This document shows positions 9,116 through 48,032 of a DNA stretch of 64,000 nucleotides, in pieces. The notes beneath the pieces were generated by a model. The model was not told the origin of the DNA. It was given only the letters and a program-made list of their open reading frames with translations, and did no database searches. The DNA comes from Patescibacteria group bacterium (GTDB taxonomy: Bacteria; Patescibacteriota; Minisyncoccia; Phycocordibacterales; UBA5272), in assembly GCA_030916895.1 (NCBI GenBank), contig JAUPVR010000001.1, positions 1,887-65,886 of the forward strand, written 5' to 3'. A program made the position numbers and the translations under genes. Position 1 is the stretch's first letter. Every line of letters starts with the position of its first letter.

Positions 9116-11539
9116 ATGAAACCATACGATTTTAAGAAAATCGAACAGCATTGGCAAAAACAGTGGGAAGAACAGCAAACCTACAAAACTGGTGAAGACA
9201 CATCTAAAGAAAAAGTATTTGTACTTGGCATGTTTCCGTATCCATCGGGGGAAGGGCTTCACACAGGGCATGTAAAAATTTTTACTGCAAGTGATATCTA
9301 TGCACGCAAGAAGCGTATGGAAGGTTACAATGTTTTGTTTCCAACAGGATGGGATGCCTTTGGACTTCCCGCAGAACAGTTTGCTATCAAAAATAAAATT
9401 CACCCACGAATTTCAACGGATAATAATGTAAATAATTTTAGGCGTCAAATGAAGATACTTTCTCTTTCGTATGATTTCAATCGCGAGGTGGACACCACCG
9501 ATCCAGCATACTACAAATGGACGCAATGGATATTTTTAAAAATGTATGAAAAAGGACTTGCATTTGAATCCTATGATCCAATTAATTGGTGTCCGTCATG
9601 TGAGACGGGTCTTGCTAATGAAGATCTAGAGGCTGGGAAGTGTGAGCGATGTGGTTCTATTGTTGAGAAAAAAAAGATGCGTCAATGGACACTTCGCATC
9701 ACTGATTATGCAGAACGTCTTTTACATGATTTGGATACGCTTCCGAAATGGCCTGAGTGGTTGAAGGAACTTGAGCGTAATTGGATTGGGAAATCTGAAG
9801 GCGCGGAGTTTGATTTCGAACTCGAAGGTGCGCCAGTAAAAAGTGTAAAGATTTTTACGACGCGTCCAGATACACTTTTCGGTGCAACGTTTGTTGCAAT
9901 TTCTGCCGAACTTGCGGATGAGTGGTTGAAGAATGGATGGGAGGCAGAAGAGGATATTCATGAGTACGTCGCAAAAACACTTAATGAACAGAAAGAGATT
10001 TTGGAGCACGGTAAAGAGCGTGAGAAGACTGGGATTTTTGCTGACATGTATGCAATCAATCCAACAACAAAAGAAAAAATTCCTGTCTGGATTGCAAATT
10101 ATGTACTAAGTGGTGTGGGGACGGGAGCAATTATGGCGGTGCCAGCACACGATGAGCGCGATTTTGAATTTGCTTTCAAATATAACATTCCAATCAAGGA
10201 AGTTATTGTGAGTGAGAAAAGTACTTTACCAGAGAAAGCATTTGTTGGTGAAGGAACACTTATTAATTCCGAAACGTTTGACGGAATGAAAAGCGAAGAG
10301 GCGAAACATAGAATCACTGAACACTTTAAAGGAAAGCCAGTGACACGCTACAAGTTGCAAGATTGGGTATTTTCTCGACAGCGATACTGGGGTGAACCGA
10401 TTCCAATCGTGCACGACGAAGAAGGCAAAGCATATCCATTGGACGTTAGCGAACTTCCGCTTACTCTTCCGGAGGTTGAGCACTATGCGCCGTCAGGAAC
10501 AGGGGAGAGCCCACTTGCAACGATTACTGACTGGGTAAATGTAAGAGGTATTATTACGGAGAAGGGAACGTTCAAGCAAGATAACAATGGAACAAACTTT
10601 CGCAGAGAAACAAACACCATGCCTCAATGGGCTGGTTCGTCATGGTACTACTTACGCTTTGCCGACCCGAACAACACCAAAGAACTTATTTCAAAAGAGG
10701 CAGAAAAATATTGGCAACCAGTTGATCGCTACGTTGGTGGTGCAGAGCACGCTACGCGCCATCTTATTTATGCGCGATTCTGGCATAAGTTTTTATATGA
10801 TATTGGCATTGTTTCTCAGATGGAACCGTTTTTGACGATGGAATCAGTAGGACTTGTCTTGGGCCCTGATGGTCAAAAGATGAGTAAGCGTAGAGGAAAC
10901 ATTGTGAATCCAGACGATGTGGTTAAGGAATGGGGTTCAGATGCTGTTCGTTTGTATTCTGCCTTCATGGGCTCATTTTATGATGCAACACCATGGAATA
11001 AAGATGCAATTGTTGGCTGTGCACGTTTTTTGGAAAAGGTGTGGAAGGTGTCTGGCTATGTGAAAGAGGAAAGCATTCCCTCGCTTGAAACAATTTTTCA
11101 TAAAACAGTCAAAAAAGTAACTGAAGACATCGAGGTATTCAAATTCAATACCGCCATTTCTTCGATGATGATTTTTTTAAACAGTGTTGATGAAGAGAAA
11201 GCAATTGGGAAAGCGGAGTGGAAAGCCTTTCTTCAAATCCTTGCACCCTTTACGCCATCTATTGCAGAGGAACTATGGAAGGATGCTGGTTTTTCTGAAA
11301 ATCTTCATACTGAGGGGTGGCCTGTGTACGACTCGGCGAAGACATTTGAGAGTGAAATTACCATGCCGATACAGATTAATGGAAAACTTCGTGGAACGTT
11401 CATTGTACCATTTGATTCAAGTGACGAAGAGGTAAAAACTAGCCTTTTTAAAACCTTAGAATATGAAAAATATGTCGGAAAGAATGAGCCAAAAAAGGTC
11501 ATTATAGTTAAAAATCGCCTTGTAAATATAGTGATTTGA
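9116..11539 (+). CDS. leuS: leucine--tRNA ligase
   Basis: HVKIF(HxGH-like) and KMSKR motifs plus CP1 editing domain; start taken at MKPYDF, so the upstream ORF extension is spurious. Confidence 0.95.
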   Translation: MKPYDFKKIEQHWQKQWEEQQTYKTGEDTSKEKVFVLGMFPYPSGEGLHTGHVKIFTASDIYARKKRMEGYNVLFPTGWDAFGLPAEQFAIKNKIHPRISTDNNVNNFRRQMKILSLSYDFNREVDTTDPAYYKWTQWIFLKMYEKGLAFESYDPINWCPSCETGLANEDLEAGKCERCGSIVEKKKMRQWTLRITDYAERLLHDLDTLPKWPEWLKELERNWIGKSEGAEFDFELEGAPVKSVKIFTTRPDTLFGATFVAISAELADEWLKNGWEAEEDIHEYVAKTLNEQKEILEHGKEREKTGIFADMYAINPTTKEKIPVWIANYVLSGVGTGAIMAVPAHDERDFEFAFKYNIPIKEVIVSEKSTLPEKAFVGEGTLINSETFDGMKSEEAKHRITEHFKGKPVTRYKLQDWVFSRQRYWGEPIPIVHDEEGKAYPLDVSELPLTLPEVEHYAPSGTGESPLATITDWVNVRGIITEKGTFKQDNNGTNFRRETNTMPQWAGSSWYYLRFADPNNTKELISKEAEKYWQPVDRYVGGAEHATRHLIYARFWHKFLYDIGIVSQMEPFLTMESVGLVLGPDGQKMSKRRGNIVNPDDVVKEWGSDAVRLYSAFMGSFYDATPWNKDAIVGCARFLEKVWKVSGYVKEESIPSLETIFHKTVKKVTEDIEVFKFNTAISSMMIFLNSVDEEKAIGKAEWKAFLQILAPFTPSIAEELWKDAGFSENLHTEGWPVYDSAKTFESEITMPIQINGKLRGTFIVPFDSSDEEVKTSLFKTLEYEKYVGKNEPKKVIIVKNRLVNIVI

Positions 11540-27111: not shown

Positions 27112-28242
27112 TTAGCGCCGAAGGGGCTTGTGCCGATTTTTGTAACGCTTCCTATATTCGTGCGAGGCGTGCTTGAATTCTTTGCAGAAATTGAGCGTCC
27201 TCTTATCGGTTTCGGTTGGCGTTACGAGCCGTAGGTAGTGAAGGAACTCTGCAATCATCCCGCGTATCACTTCTGGTGAATCGTTCCACGCAGGTGTTGC
27301 AAGGTAGCTTTTCATCACACCTTCGATACGGTCCCGCTTCCACCTAGGGAAACGAAGAACAGCTTTATCACCCGTATTTTCAATTCCCACCTTGGTGACA
27401 AATACCGTACCATGCTTCACATCAAGAACTCGTGACTTCCGGTGATTAACCGAGAAACCAGCGTCATTGATGAGGCTCCGTATTTCTCGCCGAAGATCGC
27501 TCCCGATAATGATGTCGCGGGAAAAAACCAAATCATCAACATAGCGAGTGTAGGTTATTGTTCGTTCGGTGTTTTCCTTAGACCCTTTTCTTTCACACAG
27601 AGCGCGAAGTTTGCTATCAAGAAAGACTTCGCAGTAAAGGTTAAGGAGACGTGGAGACATCGGTCCACCAATGGCGAGTCCGATGTTATTTGGTCCTGAA
27701 AAAGCAATTCGTACAAACTCTCGCAAGGGTAAGTACAGCTTGTCGGTTGTCATCATTTCCTGTGCAAGAGGATTTGAGGCGAACCAGCGAAGGGAATACC
27801 CAGAATCAAGCTGATACTTTCCGTAGTGAAAGATGAGGACGAGAAGCTTTGTCAGGCGGTCAAGGTCGACACTTGGATATGCGTGCACGAAGTCGGTGAT
27901 GTAGAAAAACCGATGACCTTTGTGCTTTTCAGCATTTACGAAGTGGTTAGATGATGGAACCGACCCCGTGGAAGACGGGAGTTTGCGCAGGGTGTAGGTT
28001 TCCCCGGTCCCATACACTTCACCGATTAGGTTGATTGCTTCATGTAGGTGTCGTTCGAAAACCGCATGAACTCTACGCATCGCCTTGTTCGGGGTGCTAA
28101 TGAGTCTTCGCTTGTCACCCACTTTTTTCCACTCTGTGTGGAATAGGGGCAATGTTTGCAAGTTGCTACCCATGAGTACATGCGGGTCGAAATGAAAAAG
28201 CTCCTCTTTTTGCGAAGGAGCCTTTTTTTGCTTTTTTGCCAT
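27112..28242 (-). CDS. reverse transcriptase, retron-type (stand-alone RT domain, about 376 aa)
   Basis: RT motifs read directly: KKVGDKRRLISTPNKAMRRV (motifs 1/2), ITDFVHAYPSVD (3), LAIGGPMSPRLLNLY (4, QG-x-P-x-SP type), YTRYVDDLVFS (5, compare retron YTRYADDLTFS), VFVTKVGI (VTG-like). SD aaggag sits 6 nt before the MAKKQ start; the 61-codon upstream extension in the ORF track is GC-rich leader, not coding. Confidence 0.85.
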   Translation of the reverse strand: MAKKQKKAPSQKEELFHFDPHVLMGSNLQTLPLFHTEWKKVGDKRRLISTPNKAMRRVHAVFERHLHEAINLIGEVYGTGETYTLRKLPSSTGSVPSSNHFVNAEKHKGHRFFYITDFVHAYPSVDLDRLTKLLVLIFHYGKYQLDSGYSLRWFASNPLAQEMMTTDKLYLPLREFVRIAFSGPNNIGLAIGGPMSPRLLNLYCEVFLDSKLRALCERKGSKENTERTITYTRYVDDLVFSRDIIIGSDLRREIRSLINDAGFSVNHRKSRVLDVKHGTVFVTKVGIENTGDKAVLRFPRWKRDRIEGVMKSYLATPAWNDSPEVIRGMIAEFLHYLRLVTPTETDKRTLNFCKEFKHASHEYRKRYKNRHKPLRR

Positions 28243-28306
28243 CGGAAGCTCCTTTGGTTTATGGGGTGATATTACAAATGAACATTTAAGTATTTCCACT
28301 GCTGGC

Positions 28307-28641
28307 GCTGGGGAGCCATGTAGATGCAGGGCAACACCCGAAGGTGCGTAACCAAAGCAGTGAACCGCGGGCCTGCGGCCGATCTCTCCTCCCGACCGAC
28401 TTCCGGCTGTTCGCGTGAATCGCACATGGCATGAACTTGCGATGACGCAGTCTGCTCGGACAGTGCCGAGGCTTCGCGGGCATAGCTTGCGCTATGAGGG
28501 AGGGCAACCCTCCCTTCCTGTCGCCAGACCTTACATCAAGAGAAAATTCCTCAAGAGAAGGCTTACTACGGCAGGATTTTGCTTAGGCACAACTACTTCT
28601 GTAATGCAGGATCTTGCACCCACAAGGTTTCGCTCCCCAGC
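28307..28641 (-). ncRNA. candidate structured ncRNA upstream of the RT (msr/msd-like or DRT-template-like)
   Basis: About 58-60% GC against a ~38% background; bracketed by 10-nt inverted repeats gctggggagc (28307-28316) and gctccccagc (28632-28641); internal hairpins include gggaggg-caa-ccctccc and a UUCG tetraloop stem; ends about 65 nt upstream of the RT start on the same strand. Confidence 0.45.
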
Positions 28642-39753: not shown

Positions 39754-39925
39754 CAAGTTTTCTAACTCTTGACATTTTTCATATTTTCAGTTATTATAAT
39801 GACAGGAGCTCTTGGGAGCGTGTTATTAGTTACATTTTTTGGTAACATGACTCGGCCTCACTTCTATAAGTTTTTAAGATCCACTTTCCCACAAACCGCA
39901 ATGTCTTCATAGGAGATTTGCAGGT

Positions 39926-40111
39926 ATGCCAACCACCAACACCCCCTCCCTGTGGCACGACCGCGTCGCGGACGATCACAACGGTCACCAGGGCTGTGGC
40001 ATTACGCCCGAACACACGCAGGAGGCGCTCGAGCAGACACGGCACGGCGATGTGTCGTCCGCCGAATGCGAGTTCGTGACCTGCATCATCAACAACAACG
40101 GCCCGATCTAG
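39926..40111 (+). CDS. small (61 aa) hypothetical protein in a GC-rich island
   Basis: SD aggaga 9 nt upstream, terminator downstream; I counted about 63% GC across the ORF; strongly GC3-biased codons. Confidence 0.45.
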   Translation: MPTTNTPSLWHDRVADDHNGHQGCGITPEHTQEALEQTRHGDVSSAECEFVTCIINNNGPI

Positions 40112-41566: not shown

Positions 41567-42406
41567 ATGTCAAACGAAAAAAAATCTATACTCTTTCTCG
41601 CCATAATTTGTGGCACCATCTTTTTTCTTTCGTACAAGAATGCGTCTTCTATTGTTGTTGCAAAAATACTCCCACAAACAGAAACCGTTTTGAATGTGTC
41701 TTCAAATCAAAATATTTCTTCACAAAAACAAGAAACGTATGAATATCTAGAAATCACAGAAAGCTGTGGCCCAGATTTTGAAGGACACTGCATCCCTGTA
41801 TATGCGGGCCCAGGAGCAGAATATAAAAAAGTAGCTGAACTTCGTGCGGGCCAAGTTTTTAAAATTAAAAGTACCGAAAACAGAAATGGTCAGGTGTGGC
41901 ACCAAGTGTATTTTGATGAATGGCTCAGATATCCAGATCGCGTAGAAGGGGATTGGTACATACCCGCAGTTGCTGGACGTGTTGTTGTTTCTTCTGATGA
42001 AGAGATGCTTTCATCCTCAACACCCCAAACGAACAAAAGAATCATTGTTGATCTTTCTGATCACATGATTTACGCATACGATGGGGACAAACAATTTTTA
42101 GCAACAAAAGTAGCAACAGGAATTGGTAGCACACCTACGCCTACGGGTACATTTACGGTATACAAAAAAATGCCAAGTAGATACATGCAAGGTCCACTTC
42201 CTGGGGTGTCGGATGTTCCATTTGATTTACCCGGTGTTCCATGGAATTTATATTTTACAGAAGACGGTGCAGTTATTCACGGAGCATACTGGCATGACCG
42301 TTACGGCACCAACCAATCAAATGGATGTATCAACCTTCCGCCAGAACTTGCAAAGATTGTGTATGATTGGGCTTCGGTTGGAACGAAAGTAATTATACAG
42401 AGGTAA
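41567..42406 (+). CDS. L,D-transpeptidase (YkuD domain) with N-terminal anchor
   Basis: C-terminal HG...SNGCINL catalytic motif; start taken at MSNEKK. Confidence 0.75.
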   Translation: MSNEKKSILFLAIICGTIFFLSYKNASSIVVAKILPQTETVLNVSSNQNISSQKQETYEYLEITESCGPDFEGHCIPVYAGPGAEYKKVAELRAGQVFKIKSTENRNGQVWHQVYFDEWLRYPDRVEGDWYIPAVAGRVVVSSDEEMLSSSTPQTNKRIIVDLSDHMIYAYDGDKQFLATKVATGIGSTPTPTGTFTVYKKMPSRYMQGPLPGVSDVPFDLPGVPWNLYFTEDGAVIHGAYWHDRYGTNQSNGCINLPPELAKIVYDWASVGTKVIIQR

Positions 42407-42509
42407 ATTTGGCACGGGTGCTTAGGGGTTATAAATTTAATAACTTTTCAAAAACTAGTTAGCATGATAGGATGGTAAACGAAGTGTTTTAAGTAGAAAG
42501 GAGCTTGAA

Positions 42510-42734
42510 ATGGGACTCTTTGATCTTTTGTTCGGTACATGTACGTGTGAGTCGTCTTCCGAAAGTGACGGGGAATGGATAACATGTCCTAACTGTTCCG
42601 GTAGTGGCGACAGTGTTGCGACTTTGGGTGGCGAAGAAGGGAATGTTCCTGATTCATGGACTGTCTGTACTATGTGTGATGGTCATGGTCAAGTTAGTCG
42701 AGGTCGTCTGCGAAATTGGCGTAGAAAGCGTTAA
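42510..42734 (+). CDS. mini-protein with two DnaJ-type CxxCxGxG zinc-finger motifs
   Basis: CPNCSGSG and CTMCDGHG motifs, strong SD aaaggag, terminator follows. Confidence 0.55.
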   Translation: MGLFDLLFGTCTCESSSESDGEWITCPNCSGSGDSVATLGGEEGNVPDSWTVCTMCDGHGQVSRGRLRNWRRKR

Positions 42735-42767
42735 CTCTGTAATCTTTTCACAAATGAACCTCTATCC

Positions 42768-42802
42768 TCTGCATCCGTATGCGGGGGGTATTTATTTTTT
42801 GG
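42768..42802 (+). terminator. intrinsic terminator
   Basis: ctgcat ccgt atgcgg plus T-run. Confidence 0.6.
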
Positions 42803-42820
42803 CTGGGGTACAAGGGCTCG
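42803..42820. repeat. 18-nt copy of the tRNA-Gln 3' end (ctggggtacaagggctcg)
   Basis: Identical to 43010-43027 within the tRNA-Gln gene. Confidence 0.7.
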
Positions 42821-42844
42821 CCTCTCCCGTTGGTCGAGACTTGT

Positions 42845-42877
42845 ATTTTCTACAACCTGAGTACAAGCTAAGAAAAT
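42845..42877. repeat. hairpin repeat copy A (7-bp stem attttct/agaaaat, 19-nt loop containing tgagtaca)
   Basis: Paired by eye; homologous to copy B at 43179-43211. Confidence 0.55.
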
Positions 42878-43009
42878 ATGTCGCCTACGGTTCTCGCCCA
42901 TGCCTTGAAGCAATACAAAAAGGATGACACGAGGCCATCCTTTTTGTTGCAAATATATATGTACTTAATCTTGCTAGATTAAGTATCTTCGTCGCCTGCG
43001 CTCCTCGAG

Positions 43010-43080
43010 CTGGGGTACAAGGGCTCGAACCTCGATTAACAGTTCCAGAAACTGCTGTCCTACCATTAGACGATACCCCA
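43010..43080 (-). tRNA. tRNA-Gln (anticodon CTG)
   Basis: Minus strand: acceptor tggggta/tacccca, anticodon loop ttCTGga, T-loop ttcgagc, discriminator G. Confidence 0.8.
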
Positions 43081-43178
43081 ATATTATGTTTTTTATTTTC
43101 CCTTTATTTAACGTCTTGGGTTTGAGACGAATATCACCGGATGTCCTACTACATGCAACGAGTACGTTGCAGTACTGC

Positions 43179-43211
43179 GATTTCTACAGATTGAGTACAA
43201 TCTAAGAAATC
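43179..43211. repeat. hairpin repeat copy B (stem gatttct/agaaatc plus inner stem agatt/aatct, apex gagtac)
   Basis: Terminal base pair a-t in copy A becomes g-c in copy B, so the pairing is preserved. Confidence 0.55.
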
Positions 43212-43331
43212 GGGAGCATTAGACGAGCCAGCAGGCGAGTGGCTTGGCCCGATACCCCAGTATGGGTCATATTTTACAACAAAATTGACACTTTTTCAAT
43301 CCCTACCCCACAACGTGATACACTTTCTTTT

Positions 43332-43826
43332 ATGAAAAAATTCGATGGCACTATTCGCAAACTACAAGAACACGATGTAAGACAGGTTGAGGAAATATTC
43401 TCTCTCTATTGGGCAGACGGAGCACTTCGAAAAAAGTTTTCCGATAAGTTAGCCAGCTTCGTAAATAATGAACTAAAAGCAATTGAACAGAATCTTTTGT
43501 ACTTTGTCGCTGAACAAAATGGAGAAATTCTTGGTTCTCTTGGGTTTAGAAAAGCACCGGAACCGATGCTTTTATTTTCGACGATAAACAATGTCGCTGA
43601 ACTTTATATTCTTGCAGTAAAAAATCGTGGCATGGGAGTGGGTAGAGCATTAATCGAAAAAATGTTAGATGAATCTAGAAAACTTGGGTATACGGAAATT
43701 GTTTTGTTTAATAGTGATTTACATAACGAGGCGCGTGGGTTCTATGAGCGTCTTCATTTTAAAAGACTTGGCCCTATAATTGCATCAAACGGTGATCCTG
43801 GTGAAATTTGGGGTATCATCCTTTAA
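43332..43826 (+). CDS. GNAT-family N-acetyltransferase
   Basis: RGMGVGRALIE acetyl-CoA-binding motif; start taken at MKKFDG. Confidence 0.75.
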   Translation: MKKFDGTIRKLQEHDVRQVEEIFSLYWADGALRKKFSDKLASFVNNELKAIEQNLLYFVAEQNGEILGSLGFRKAPEPMLLFSTINNVAELYILAVKNRGMGVGRALIEKMLDESRKLGYTEIVLFNSDLHNEARGFYERLHFKRLGPIIASNGDPGEIWGIIL

Positions 43827-44940: not shown

Positions 44941-45237
44941 ATGATTAAAGCATACGTTGAATATATAAAAAATAATCCCAAAAAGCTCTGGTTTAAAAGA
45001 AAAATCTACGGATGGGGTTGGACACCTGCAACATGGCAGGGTTGGCTAACTATTTTCGTCTATGTGGTTCTCGTTTTAGTGTTCAGTCTAACTATTGATG
45101 AACAATCTCCACCAAGAGAGGTGGTCTTTACTTTTATTTTACCAATCACACTCCTAACCGCCACACTACTACGTATTTGTTATAAAAAAGGTGAGAAACC
45201 AAAGTGGCAATGGGGTTTTCCTAAAGAAGATAATTAA
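44941..45237 (+). CDS. small membrane protein, 98 aa
   Basis: One or two TM helices, W-rich. Confidence 0.4.
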   Translation: MIKAYVEYIKNNPKKLWFKRKIYGWGWTPATWQGWLTIFVYVVLVLVFSLTIDEQSPPREVVFTFILPITLLTATLLRICYKKGEKPKWQWGFPKEDN

Positions 45238-45307
45238 AGTCCTAATTTTACCCACCACATTAGTTTGTTTTTTCTTTTGTCCTCTAGAGGTGTACACTAA
45301 ACGTAGT

Positions 45308-45886
45308 ATGAAAATAAATCCACTTTTTAACGCCCTCGGCGCAGTAGTTTATATTTTGGCAGTTGTCGGCATTATTTCTGCGTTACAATCACCCAACACA
45401 CCGGATGCTGAAATACTTGCGCCAGTTTTTCTGCTCTCTCTTTTTACGCTTTCTGTTGCGGTTATGGCGTTCTTGTTTTTCTATCAACCATTCAAGTTGT
45501 ATTTCGACAACCACAAAAAAGAAGCAGTTGTGTACTTCATGAAGACGCTTGGTTATTTCGCCACCGTAGTACTCCTTTCTTTTTTTGCACTTCTTTATTT
45601 TCGTGCTGAAGACTCAATAACCTTTCCAAAAGGCGGAGAGAAGTTAGTACAAGGGCAGAGTTACGAACTTACCTGGACTGGAGGTCGCGAGGAGATAACA
45701 CAAATATTTTTAGTCGATGTGTCGCTTAAGGAAAAGAATACATCGGCAAGTATTGTAGATAGAATTTATGGAATCGAAAATTTTCACACATACACGTACA
45801 TTGTTCCTACGAACATAAAGCCCGGGACGTATCAATTCCAAATAGGAAGCCAATCAAGCCCAACGTTTGATATTGTTTCGAAATAA
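45308..45886 (+). CDS. membrane protein with extracellular beta-rich (Kre9/KNH-like) C-terminal domain
   Basis: 3 TM N-terminal module plus GQSYELTWTGG...YTYIVPTNIKPGTYQFQIGS; paralog of 47733..48032. Confidence 0.55.
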   Translation: MKINPLFNALGAVVYILAVVGIISALQSPNTPDAEILAPVFLLSLFTLSVAVMAFLFFYQPFKLYFDNHKKEAVVYFMKTLGYFATVVLLSFFALLYFRAEDSITFPKGGEKLVQGQSYELTWTGGREEITQIFLVDVSLKEKNTSASIVDRIYGIENFHTYTYIVPTNIKPGTYQFQIGSQSSPTFDIVSK

Positions 45887-47658: not shown

Positions 47659-47732
47659 GAGGTTCAGTATAGTTTAATTATTTAGTTCTTCAAATATGAT
47701 CATTTACCCTATAGGTGTACACTAGGCTTAGT

Positions 47733-48032
47733 ATGAAAATAAATCCATTTTTTAACGCACTCGGCGCACTGGCTTACATTTTGCTAGTTGTTGGCATCAT
47801 TTCGGCATTGCAATCACCAAACACCCCAGATAAGGGGATACTCGCCCCAGTGTTTTTACTTAGCCTCTTTGTACTTTCCGCTGCGGTTATGGCATTCTTA
47901 TTTTTCTATCAACCGTTTAAATTGTATTTCGATAACAATAAAAAAGAAGCTTTTGTGTACTTCATGAAAACTGTCGGCTACTTTGCGTGCTACGTGGCAA
48001 TTTTTTTCGCAGTGCTTCTCTACTTGGCTTAG
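47733..48032 (+). CDS. truncated paralog of 45308..45886 (membrane module only)
   Basis: About 85% aa identity to the N-terminal 100 aa of 45308..45886; the upstream 30 nt is also conserved. Confidence 0.5.
   Translation: MKINPFFNALGALAYILLVVGIISALQSPNTPDKGILAPVFLLSLFVLSAAVMAFLFFYQPFKLYFDNNKKEAFVYFMKTVGYFACYVAIFFAVLLYLA

Follow-up and report, generated by a model that had tools for sequence, protein, structure and literature searches.

The new finding is a covarying two-hairpin insert, defined by its sequence and without a published description found in a literature search, that is common to a tRNA-Gln locus and an intron of a 16S rRNA gene. Its first hairpin is a genuine conserved structured module, in which pairing is kept by covariation above the level of controls. 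The favoured reading, held at a probability of about one half, is that the hairpins belong to a small insertion-polymorphic element at a tRNA-Gln recombination hotspot, a dispensable passenger and not a required regulator. All coordinates refer to the whole 64-kb stretch of DNA that was analysed, here called the window, unless a locus is named. The window belongs to a Patescibacteria (CPR) genome, to judge by the proteins that flank the locus and by a scan of a genome collection.

Organization of the tRNA-Gln Locus

Two copies of the hairpin, at 42847-42875 and 43181-43209, are direct repeats 334 nt apart with 86% identity over 29 nt, and no further match to the pair is present in the 64-kb window or in 100 shuffles. 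They lie on either side of an intact tRNA-Gln gene and among several pieces related to it. The features of the locus are as follows.

42802-42820, minus strand: copy of the tRNA-Gln 3′-end, an exact repeat of 19 nt, equal to 43009-43027 at an offset of 207
42821-42828, minus strand: GGGAGAGG, non-tRNA sequence directly 5′ of the 3′ fragment, with counterparts GGAGAGG in L009 and GGGAGAG in L023
42844-42878, minus strand: hairpin copy A, 62.1 bits with the covariance model, followed by CAAGUCUCGA (42843-42834)
42869-42896, minus strand: stretch of 28 nt that contains GGGCGAGAAC and has 71% identity with the tRNA trailer at 42980-43007, immediately 3′ of the gene; GGGCGAGAAC is also kept in L023
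42915-42947, both strands: perfect inverted repeat of 12 bp with a 9-nt loop, terminator-like on either strand
42962-42985, minus strand: second type of hairpin, with a 10-bp stem and a conserved apex, CUAGCAAG
43009-43080, minus strand: intact tRNA-Gln(CUG), found by ARAGORN and scored at 57.7 bits by Rfam, 100% identical to tRNA-Gln of L010
43139-43149, minus strand: GTAGGACATCC, putative relic of a dead tRNA-Gln copy upstream, directly following insert B and kept in L023
43150-43216, minus strand: insert B, a two-hairpin element of 67 nt, 79.4 bits with the covariance model
43154-43171, minus strand: hairpin 2 of insert B, with a G-UACU-C apex
43178-43212, minus strand: hairpin 1 of insert B, which is the conserved module and is followed by hairpin 2
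43217-43259, minus strand: 5′ fragment of tRNA-Gln in two pieces, the acceptor piece TGGGGTATCG (43259-43250) and the D-arm piece GTCTAATG (within 43226-43217)
43271-43299, minus strand: promoter-like site TTGAAA-17-TAAAAT, 11 nt upstream of the 5′ fragment

Both hairpin copies fold on the minus strand, which is that of the tRNA, into 15 bp with one bulged U and a UACU loop. The first-pass annotation, which had rightly recognized two homologous hairpins, described them on the plus strand; the relevant strand is the minus strand, by its better fold. The minus-strand energies of copies A and B are -12.1 and -16.0 kcal/mol, against -6.7 (in a different fold) and -14.5 kcal/mol on the plus strand, and the three G-U pairs of copy A are A-C mismatches on the latter. 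Pairing is kept at 10/10 of the stem differences between the two copies, so that the pair-preserving change that had been noticed at one closing pair extends to four pairs changed on both sides and two changed by G-U wobble, with none broken. Hairpins with a TACT loop and a stem of at least 7 bp number just three in the window when both strands are searched, and all three are on the minus strand. The hairpin at 43154-43171, with its G-UACU-C apex, had been listed as a third, nearby one; it exists, but as the second arm of insert B and not as a separate structure.

Covariation and Recurrence of the Module

The consensus of the module is CCCGAU-UUCUUAG-NNNG-UACU-CNNN-CUGUAGAA-AUCGCAGU. JGI metagenome contigs were scanned with a strict pattern in which the outer stem and the loop were fixed and four positions on each side of the inner stem were left free. 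Nine loci were obtained, and five of them (L016, L018, L020, L022, and L023) are true, with complementary inner stems and with common flanks that the pattern did not specify, namely CCCGAU ahead of the module and AUCGCA(G/A)U behind it; the other 4 of the 9 are chance matches with non-complementary inner stems and unrelated flanks. The pattern placed no constraint (N) on the inner-stem positions, so that their complementarity tests the hairpin without bias. The motif is therefore found well beyond the tRNA-Gln locus, in five further metagenome copies, and a simple tandem duplication confined to this place does not describe it.

Covariation, which had been proposed as a check on the hairpin, is evident in the alignment of seven sequences (window copies A and B with L016, L018, L020, L022, and L023): two-sided changes occur at 8 of the 15 pairs, and pairing holds in 99% of the cells. 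Shuffled and slid controls fall far below the observed covariation. The loop, the bulge region, a UA/UGU region, and the tail on the 3′ side, CGCA(G/A)U, show no variation, and it is the inner stem that covaries. The conserved part comprises about 46-48 nt, beyond which the loci are unrelated.

The core of copy B is identical to the cores of L020 and L023, and copy A matches the core of L018 at 25/27 positions, as opposed to 23/27 for copy B. Because the L018 variant stands closer to copy A than copy B does, the two copies in the window are separate members of a family. The earlier proposal of a small structured element that was duplicated here thus holds for the element, which is conserved, recurs, and covaries, and fails for the local duplication. 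Copy A is the most divergent copy, with an L018-like inner stem and three G-U pairs; it is without the conserved flanks and the second hairpin, and its CAAGUC tail is kept, as in L018 and L023. These features suggest that copy A is an older, partly deleted copy.

The module is sparsely distributed. With a covariance model built from the seven-sequence alignment, no further copies were found in the window, L009, L010, or L012. Rfam 15 matched only the tRNA, both in 42300-43700 (E ≤ 10) and in the whole window (gathering thresholds), and gave no family for the module when applied to the module-bearing loci. The sole Rfam alignment that spans the module is in L018, to group-II-D1D4-3, and is sub-threshold (22.4 bits vs a cutoff of 32). 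Viral contigs gave no match to the strict pattern and 29 matches to a relaxed one, all of which scored at most 20 bits with the model and are attributable to chance. Hairpins with a GUACUC apex occur at 43154-43171 in the window, at 1788-1809 in L016, and at 7238-7265 in L025.

The module is in sense orientation with the host RNA in 4/4 identifiable contexts, namely window copies A and B, L023, and L018. The copy in L022 is on the same strand as the upstream tRNA, beyond a terminator-like hairpin, and that in L020 is antisense to both neighbouring genes.

The Module as a Discrete Insert

Complete inserts measure 67 nt in window copy B, 65 nt in L023, and 68 nt in L018, and all three fold as two hairpins, of which the first is conserved and the second variable; in the window copy only, the second shares its apex with the first. 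The L018 contig begins within a 16S rRNA gene. Near position 1400, this gene is split by a group II-like intron with a LAGLIDADG endonuclease, a class of intron that is known in CPR (PMC11270868), and the hairpin lies in domain I of this intron. Nine other homologous intron loci were collected through homologues of the LAGLIDADG endonuclease, and the covariance model gave no match in any of the nine. When L018 is aligned with four homologous introns, which are otherwise ~74% identical, an extra block of 68 nt (positions 224-291) stands opposite a clean gap in all four. This block is in an A-rich stretch inside otherwise well-conserved intron sequence.

In the window and in L023, the insert separates GTCTAATG from GTAGGACA; in the D-arm of intact tRNA-Gln the two adjoin. 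Judged from the tRNA sequence, insert B probably occupies the D-loop position of a dead upstream copy of tRNA-Gln. The rigorous comparison of an occupied with an empty site is that of L018, and the tRNA case is deduced from the sequence of the tRNA itself. ARAGORN and Rfam call the intact downstream gene only, and after insert B just GTAGGACA is left of the tRNA body. The first 8 nt of GTAGGACATCC are equal to the 3′ side of the tRNA-Gln D-stem, and the intact tRNA-Gln lies ~70 nt downstream of the disrupted copy.

The proteins that flank the L023 locus have no homologue in the window, so that the two loci are non-syntenic. L023 nevertheless has the same architecture as the window, and a block of 60 nt that comprises the D-arm piece and the module is 100% identical between them. 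Outside the conserved blocks the leaders are far more diverged, with ~80% identity over a BLAST segment of 226 nt that includes the tRNA. Taken together with the invariant parts of the module, the identity of the 60-nt block has more the look of functional constraint, or of a transfer that happened very recently, than of a passenger in decay. The CUAGCAAG apex is also found downstream of tRNA-Gln in L023, on different stems.

The copy number of the module is low, with two copies in the 64-kb window and five true matches to the strict pattern in the JGI scan. No consistent terminal inverted repeats or target-site duplications are found at the three defined junctions. The left junctions are ACATAA^, CTAATG^, and GGTATG^, and three are too few to define a motif.

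Fragments of tRNA-Gln and Turnover of the Flanks

The copy of the tRNA-Gln 3′-end extends from the T-loop (position ~56) to one nucleotide past the discriminator (+1) and adjoins the plus-strand terminator of a 74-aa gene. It had been reported as 18 nt at 42803-42820; the offset of 207 was correct, and the exact repeat is one nucleotide longer. The DNA between the 3′-end of the tRNA and this copy is ~190 bp long and non-coding. Orthologous pseudo-fragments lie downstream of tRNA-Gln in L009, L023, and L012; in L009, in which the hairpin is absent, the fragment is decayed (GGAGAGGCGAGCCCTTGTGCC) and lies ~105 nt downstream of the tRNA. Because a GGAGAG motif precedes the 3′ fragment in the window, L009, and L023, the fragment either predates their divergence or is maintained.

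The copy of the 5′-end, CGATACCCCA, also exists, at 43250-43259, which is 4 nt to the right of the position first given (43246-43255), and extends to 14 nt with 93% identity. The D-arm piece, CATTAGACGA at 43217-43226, was overlooked in the first-pass annotation. In the window, 23 extra bases (43227-43249) split the acceptor piece from the D-arm piece, and the 5′ fragment of L023 is 17 nt long without interruption. The promoter-like site upstream of the fragment in the window has its homologue, by alignment, in the promoter that precedes tRNA-Gln in L009 and L010; the same promoter is at the contig edge in L011, which ends before any tRNA. In L023, what precedes the outer 5′ fragment is homologous to the leader that lies directly upstream of the tRNA in L010. 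Because the sequences upstream of the outer 5′ fragment match those upstream of intact tRNA-Gln in relatives, this fragment is probably the original start of the disrupted gene copy.

No standard mechanism accounts for the 17-nt duplication of the 5′-end. Tandem duplication of the gene, followed by insertion and decay, would be the simplest account; in another account, a foreign cassette would have replaced the locus via tRNA-anchored recombination.

Comparison of the tRNA-Gln flanks, which had also been proposed as a check, shows that the window, L009, and L010 each have different ones. L010 has 86% identity in the neighbouring 315-aa protein and 100% identity in tRNA-Gln, which is preceded there by its leader and the same promoter; neither hairpins nor fragments are present at this locus. 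Because the identical tRNA-Gln of L010 is without the module, the insert and the fragments are dispensable for tRNA-Gln. In L009, the neighbouring protein is 88% identical, and the tRNA stands directly behind the homologous promoter and is inverted relative to the flanking genes. The window neighbours are a Zn-finger-like 74-aa protein, GNAT, YkuD, and NTP-transferases. The interval bounded by the conserved YkuD gene and by that of the 315-aa protein contains different genes in each of the three genomes.

Window: Zn-finger-like 74-aa protein, GNAT
L010: glyoxalase, DUF1428
L009: radical-SAM-like ORF (by eye only), small ORFs, DUF1428

Because the genes of this interval differ in all three genomes, tRNA-Gln is the sole constant in a hotspot of gene turnover. 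The more distant relatives of the 315-aa neighbour (L024-L026) contain neither tRNA-Gln nor the module and are uninformative. No integrase, resolvase, or transposase was found among 24 scanned proteins and the annotated genes at 38-47 kb, a scope outside which fall ~35 of the 62 ORFs of at least 120 aa, mostly at 0-27 kb; the scanned ORFs of the window likewise include no TnpA (Y1 transposase). The suggestion of an integration hotspot with att remnants is thus borne out in its exact 19-nt repeat, the turnover of the flanks, and the inversion of the tRNA in L009, but not in the absence of an integrase among the scanned genes, the spacing of ~190 bp, or the presence of a 5′ fragment.

Origin of the Locus and Alternative Explanations

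According to the favoured reading, the hairpins would be copies of a small Patescibacteria element that varies by presence and absence, a complete copy of which (65-68 nt) would consist of the conserved 35-nt hairpin followed by the variable second hairpin. Such an element would ride in transcribed structured-RNA loci in sense orientation, and would be tolerated because it folds autonomously and leaves the host RNA undisturbed. In the precursor of tRNA-Gln, with which it would be co-transcribed, it would be discarded together with the leader and trailer in normal end-processing. Insert B would have interrupted an upstream copy of tRNA-Gln, now dead, whose original promoter is retained, and copy A, in the trailer, would be a separate copy of greater age that has been deleted in part. 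The tRNA end fragments may be scars of partial duplication or recombination at tRNA-Gln, both flanks of which would be a turnover hotspot; the exact repeat from the T-loop to the 3′-end has the form that is left by site-specific integration into tRNA genes. Counted in favour of this reading are the five extra copies of the module with their unrelated flanks, the covariation, the G-U pairs on the minus strand, the absence of the L018 block from homologous introns, the module-free locus of L010, the position of the insert between two D-arm pieces in the window and L023, the match of the sequences upstream of the outer 5′ fragment to those of intact tRNA-Gln genes, the closeness of copy A to the L018 variant, the sense orientation, and the turnover of the flanks. 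Counted against it are the single rigorous comparison of an occupied with an empty site, the invariant parts of the module and the identical 60-nt block, the 5′-end duplication that no standard mechanism accounts for, the low copy number, the lack of clear target-site duplications or terminal inverted repeats, and the lack of a recombinase among the scanned genes.

As a tentative extension of the favoured reading, the 65-68-nt unit may represent an undescribed class of miniature elements that insert, via single-stranded DNA or RNA, specifically at positions that code for loops in strongly transcribed genes of structured RNAs, for instance the D-loop of a tRNA and domain I of a group II intron. 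The nested tRNA-Gln would then be a gene that was disrupted, rescued by its duplicate, and possibly spread as a cassette by tRNA-anchored recombination.

In the main rival, stable-RNA transcripts would carry the hairpin as a functional, cis-acting module that could bind a protein or nuclease for processing, stabilisation, or antitermination and that would be gained or retained where it is of use, with the tRNA-like pieces aiding the processing of the tRNA-Gln precursor. This is possible, though doubtful. It would account well for a loop, bulge region, and 3′ tail that are invariant while the inner stem covaries, for the sense orientation in tRNA and rRNA-intron transcripts, for the complete identity of the 60-nt block between non-syntenic loci, and for the GUACUC apex on other hairpins of the window, L016, and L025. 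A strong promoter-like site directly upstream and the potential of the outer 5′ and 3′ pieces to pair, in a fold with z = -9, are also in keeping with it, although the z-score of this 471-nt fold is driven mainly by the tRNA and local hairpins. The difficulty lies in the distribution, which is sporadic: tRNA-Gln of the nearest relative is identical and has no part of the module beside it, 9 of the 10 homologous 16S intron loci are without it, and no protein partner co-occurs with it. Neither the L020 copy, antisense to both its neighbours, nor the L022 copy, past a terminator-like hairpin, is readily reconciled with a role in stable-RNA transcripts.

Less likely than this rival are a DNA recombination site and a single large RNA. 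In the first case, the hairpins would be att-, res-, or dif-like sites or single-strand hairpins of the HUH/Y1 type that bracket a tRNA-Gln cassette of 334 bp, with the fragments as remnants of attL and attR. The arrangement of the copies as direct repeats around the tRNA, 334 nt apart, is what such sites would give, as are the exact 19-nt repeat from the T-loop to the 3′-end, the gene turnover on both flanks with the inverted tRNA of L009, and the form of the module, which is imperfectly palindromic, has an asymmetric centre of 4 bp, and leaves a T extrahelical; in several samples, moreover, short-read contigs end inside or beside both hairpins. However, covariation that keeps a hairpin and G-U pairs that are possible on one strand are unexpected for a duplex recombinase site, and the copies differ at the centre, where crossover sites must match. 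The copy in L018 is solitary inside its intron, excision between copies A and B would delete the only tRNA-Gln(CUG) of the window, and no integrase, resolvase, or transposase was found among the genes annotated at 38-47 kb or among the other scanned ORFs (~35 ORFs being outside the scan). Recombination sites are therefore rather unlikely.

It is improbable that the minus strand from 43260 to 42800 is one large structured RNA with tRNA-like ends and an embedded tRNA-Gln, comparable to large ornate RNAs beside tRNAs. Its architecture is common to two non-syntenic loci, and the outer tRNA-derived strands pair in both, in folds with z = -9 (471 nt, window) and z = -12.6 (L023 counterpart), but this outer pairing is a trivial consequence of the tRNA origin of both ends. 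Conservation between the window and L023 is limited to short islands, no Rfam match is found, and L010 is without the entire structure. Chance similarity or simple local tandem duplication with drift, for which it can be said that all the repeats lie within 460 nt, is scarcely credible in view of the unequal offsets (207, 111, 334, 153, and 179 nt), the motif in five unrelated contigs, the closer match of copy A to a foreign copy than to copy B, and the ten stem differences that all keep pairing.

Several specific candidates were also rejected. A canonical part of domain I of group II introns, to which the weak D1D4-3 alignment in L018 might point, is contradicted by homologous introns without the hairpin, and a tRNA intron (group I, group II, or BHB) by exons that are not intact, with just GTAGGACA after the insert. 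Simple tandem duplication was set aside for its inconsistent offsets and for the closer match of copy A to a foreign copy. Inspection by eye dismissed a Cas12a repeat (AAUUUCUAC occurs on the non-folding strand only, and the GUAGA partner is absent), an integron attC site (AAC/GTT boxes absent), dif/Xer sites (the centre covaries as a stem), and the K-turn, the 11-nt tetraloop receptor, the sarcin-ricin motif, and an anticodon-arm mimic (defining bases or geometry absent), as well as ribozymes with a loop-tail pseudoknot, as the tail changes to AAU in L016 and L018 with the loop unchanged. The identity of the loop UUGUACUCA with the end of the 16S 5′ exon in L018 was judged coincidental, only GUACUC being kept across copies. 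Elsewhere in the window, a search for a DGR near the reverse transcriptase gave no template or variable repeat, and a GC-rich patch at 39.9-40.1 kb, considered as a hidden RNA gene, has no Rfam match and no excess folding.

Implications

Patescibacteria have tiny genomes and unusually many inserts in rRNA and tRNA genes, most of the short ones uncharacterised. A covarying insert of 66 nt that is found in a tRNA copy, a tRNA trailer, and a 16S intron is a concrete handle on such inserts, and its covariance model can be used to ask by what route they spread, whether RNA-gene loops are their targets, and whether autonomous folding is the reason for which the host tolerates them. For annotation, it follows that tRNA-end fragments beside a tRNA need not signal a prophage or an island, and that a single-copy essential tRNA gene can lie in a mosaic of its own relics. 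Should the hairpin instead be a protein-binding RNA module, it would lead to an unknown factor of stable-RNA processing in this phylum.

Comparison with Known Systems

The nearest known counterparts are the short inserts and IVS of rRNA genes in CPR and other bacteria, att remnants at tRNA genes, and miniature palindromic repeats. In tRNA genes that serve as att sites, the identity block reportedly runs from the T-loop to the 3′-end, as Williams is said to have described in 2002, and integration into the 3′-end of a tRNA gene yields no 5′ fragment. The present locus resembles att remnants in its exact 19-nt repeat downstream of an intact tRNA and in its variable neighbouring genes, and differs from them in having no integrase among the scanned genes, only ~190 bp between the repeats, and an extra 5′ fragment. 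The 178-bp repeats of E. coli tyrT each bear the last 19 nt of the tRNA and thus likewise place copies of the 3′-end downstream of the gene; the present locus, however, has a single copy, together with a 5′ fragment and a foreign hairpin element.

REP and REPIN sequences, miniature palindromic elements, and PATE derivatives of IS200/IS605 are short, imperfect, non-coding palindromes with strand-specific hairpins. The extrahelical base, the strand-specific hairpin, the lack of coding capacity, and the insertion polymorphism of the present element are all reminiscent of this group. Unlike its members, the element has a very low copy number, no RAYT or TnpA among the scanned ORFs, and no paired ends of the same type, and it is tied to structured-RNA genes and not to generic intergenic space.

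Introns are found in tRNA genes of Patescibacteria, and one bacterial group II intron in a D-loop has been described (Nakagawa et al., 2026; PMC13011429). As in these introns, extra sequence lies within the body of a tRNA gene in the same phylum, but here it is 65-68 nt long without a group I or group II core, and the interrupted copy, which lacks the anticodon and T arms, is a pseudogene that is not spliced. Short uncharacterised insertions and intervening sequences (IVS) in rRNA genes are common in CPR (Tsurumaki et al., 2024; PMC11270868). The hosts of the present insert, a tRNA copy or leader and a group II intron, differ from helices 25 and 45 of rRNA, and its sequence is conserved across hosts, which has not been reported for IVS. 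With these rRNA inserts it shares the form of an ORF-less extended hairpin in the loop of a structured RNA, a sporadic occurrence among relatives, and the phylum in which it is found.

Hairpins and tRNA-like sequences around tRNA-Gln

The leader and trailer of tRNA-Gln, in the window and in the metagenome contig L023 alike, harbor a second family of hairpins, in which the CUAGCAAG apex is conserved and the stems are unrelated. In L023 and in L012, a tRNA-Gln-bearing locus without the UACU-loop hairpin module, the tRNA gene is directly followed by a copy of its own 3′-end in inverted orientation. This copy pairs with the acceptor 3′ strand to form a long hairpin; several hairpins and then a direct 3′ pseudo-fragment lie downstream. 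This arrangement constitutes a conserved unit of 115-150 nt, the ends of which are tRNA-like and the inner hairpins of which covary.

Window 42962-42985; L023 807-826 and ~1081-1092: hairpins with CUAGCAAG apex
L012 1-190; L023 730-945: unit with inverted tRNA 3′-end copy (GCTGGGGTACA...)
Window 43227-43249: extra block of 23 nt (26 nt including the repeated CGA) splitting the 5′ tRNA fragment

The extra block, which has the repeated CGA on its flanks and is absent from L023, includes UCGCCUGC, the complement of which, GCAGGCGA, lies in the trailer immediately 3′ of the tRNA. In several samples belonging to one study, Logan short-read contigs terminate within or beside hairpins A and B, the module copies flanking tRNA-Gln (window 42841/42859 and 43121/43197), and no Logan contig spans the window tRNA-Gln locus. 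These contig ends could be caused by an assembly artefact or by population heterogeneity.

Related hairpins and introns in other loci

L016 1788-1809 and L025 7238-7265, minus strand: long hairpins with the GUACUC apex of the module, stems of 8 and 11 bp
L016 ~675-890 and L020 ~10868-11015: units of 150-215 nt enclosing the module, with a perfect long-range closing stem of 13-19 bp
L022 2441-2706, minus strand: group I intron (69 bits) interrupting a tRNA gene
L018 ~82-1012: group II-like intron, carrying a LAGLIDADG ORF, that interrupts the 16S rRNA gene near position 1400

Apart from the apex, the hairpins in L016, a module-bearing contig, and L025, the locus of a distant relative of the 315-aa protein, have no similarity to the module; across the 221 kb covered, chance alone would be expected to yield about 0.3 such additional hairpins. 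The closing stems of the module-enclosing units of L016 and L020 (z = -6.5 and -7.5, respectively) are mutually unrelated. For the intron-interrupted tRNA gene of L022, ARAGORN makes no call; downstream of the module, this contig carries an AbiEi/AbiEii-like pair. For the LAGLIDADG ORF of L018, the protein collection contains about 1500 homologues at E<=1e-10.

Other features of the window

39900-40100: G+C-rich patch of ~200 nt (59-60% G+C versus ~40% in the genome)
45191-45886 and 47715-48032: ORFs with a near-identical membrane N-terminal region (common MKINP(L/F)FNALGA...FYQPFKLYFDN)
27112-28422, minus strand: stand-alone reverse transcriptase of 436 aa (Pfam RVT_1)

The patch, which is flanked by PIF1 helicase and NTP-transferase genes, lacks an Rfam match and, on both strands, excess folding, and may be a foreign gene fragment; the close relative L009 lacks a ~970-bp stretch that includes it. 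The two ORFs represent a local paralogous duplication. The reverse transcriptase bears only a weak likeness to retron and defence reverse transcriptases (67 bits versus a cutoff of 235), and no DGR-type repeat was detected between 22 and 30 kb of the window.
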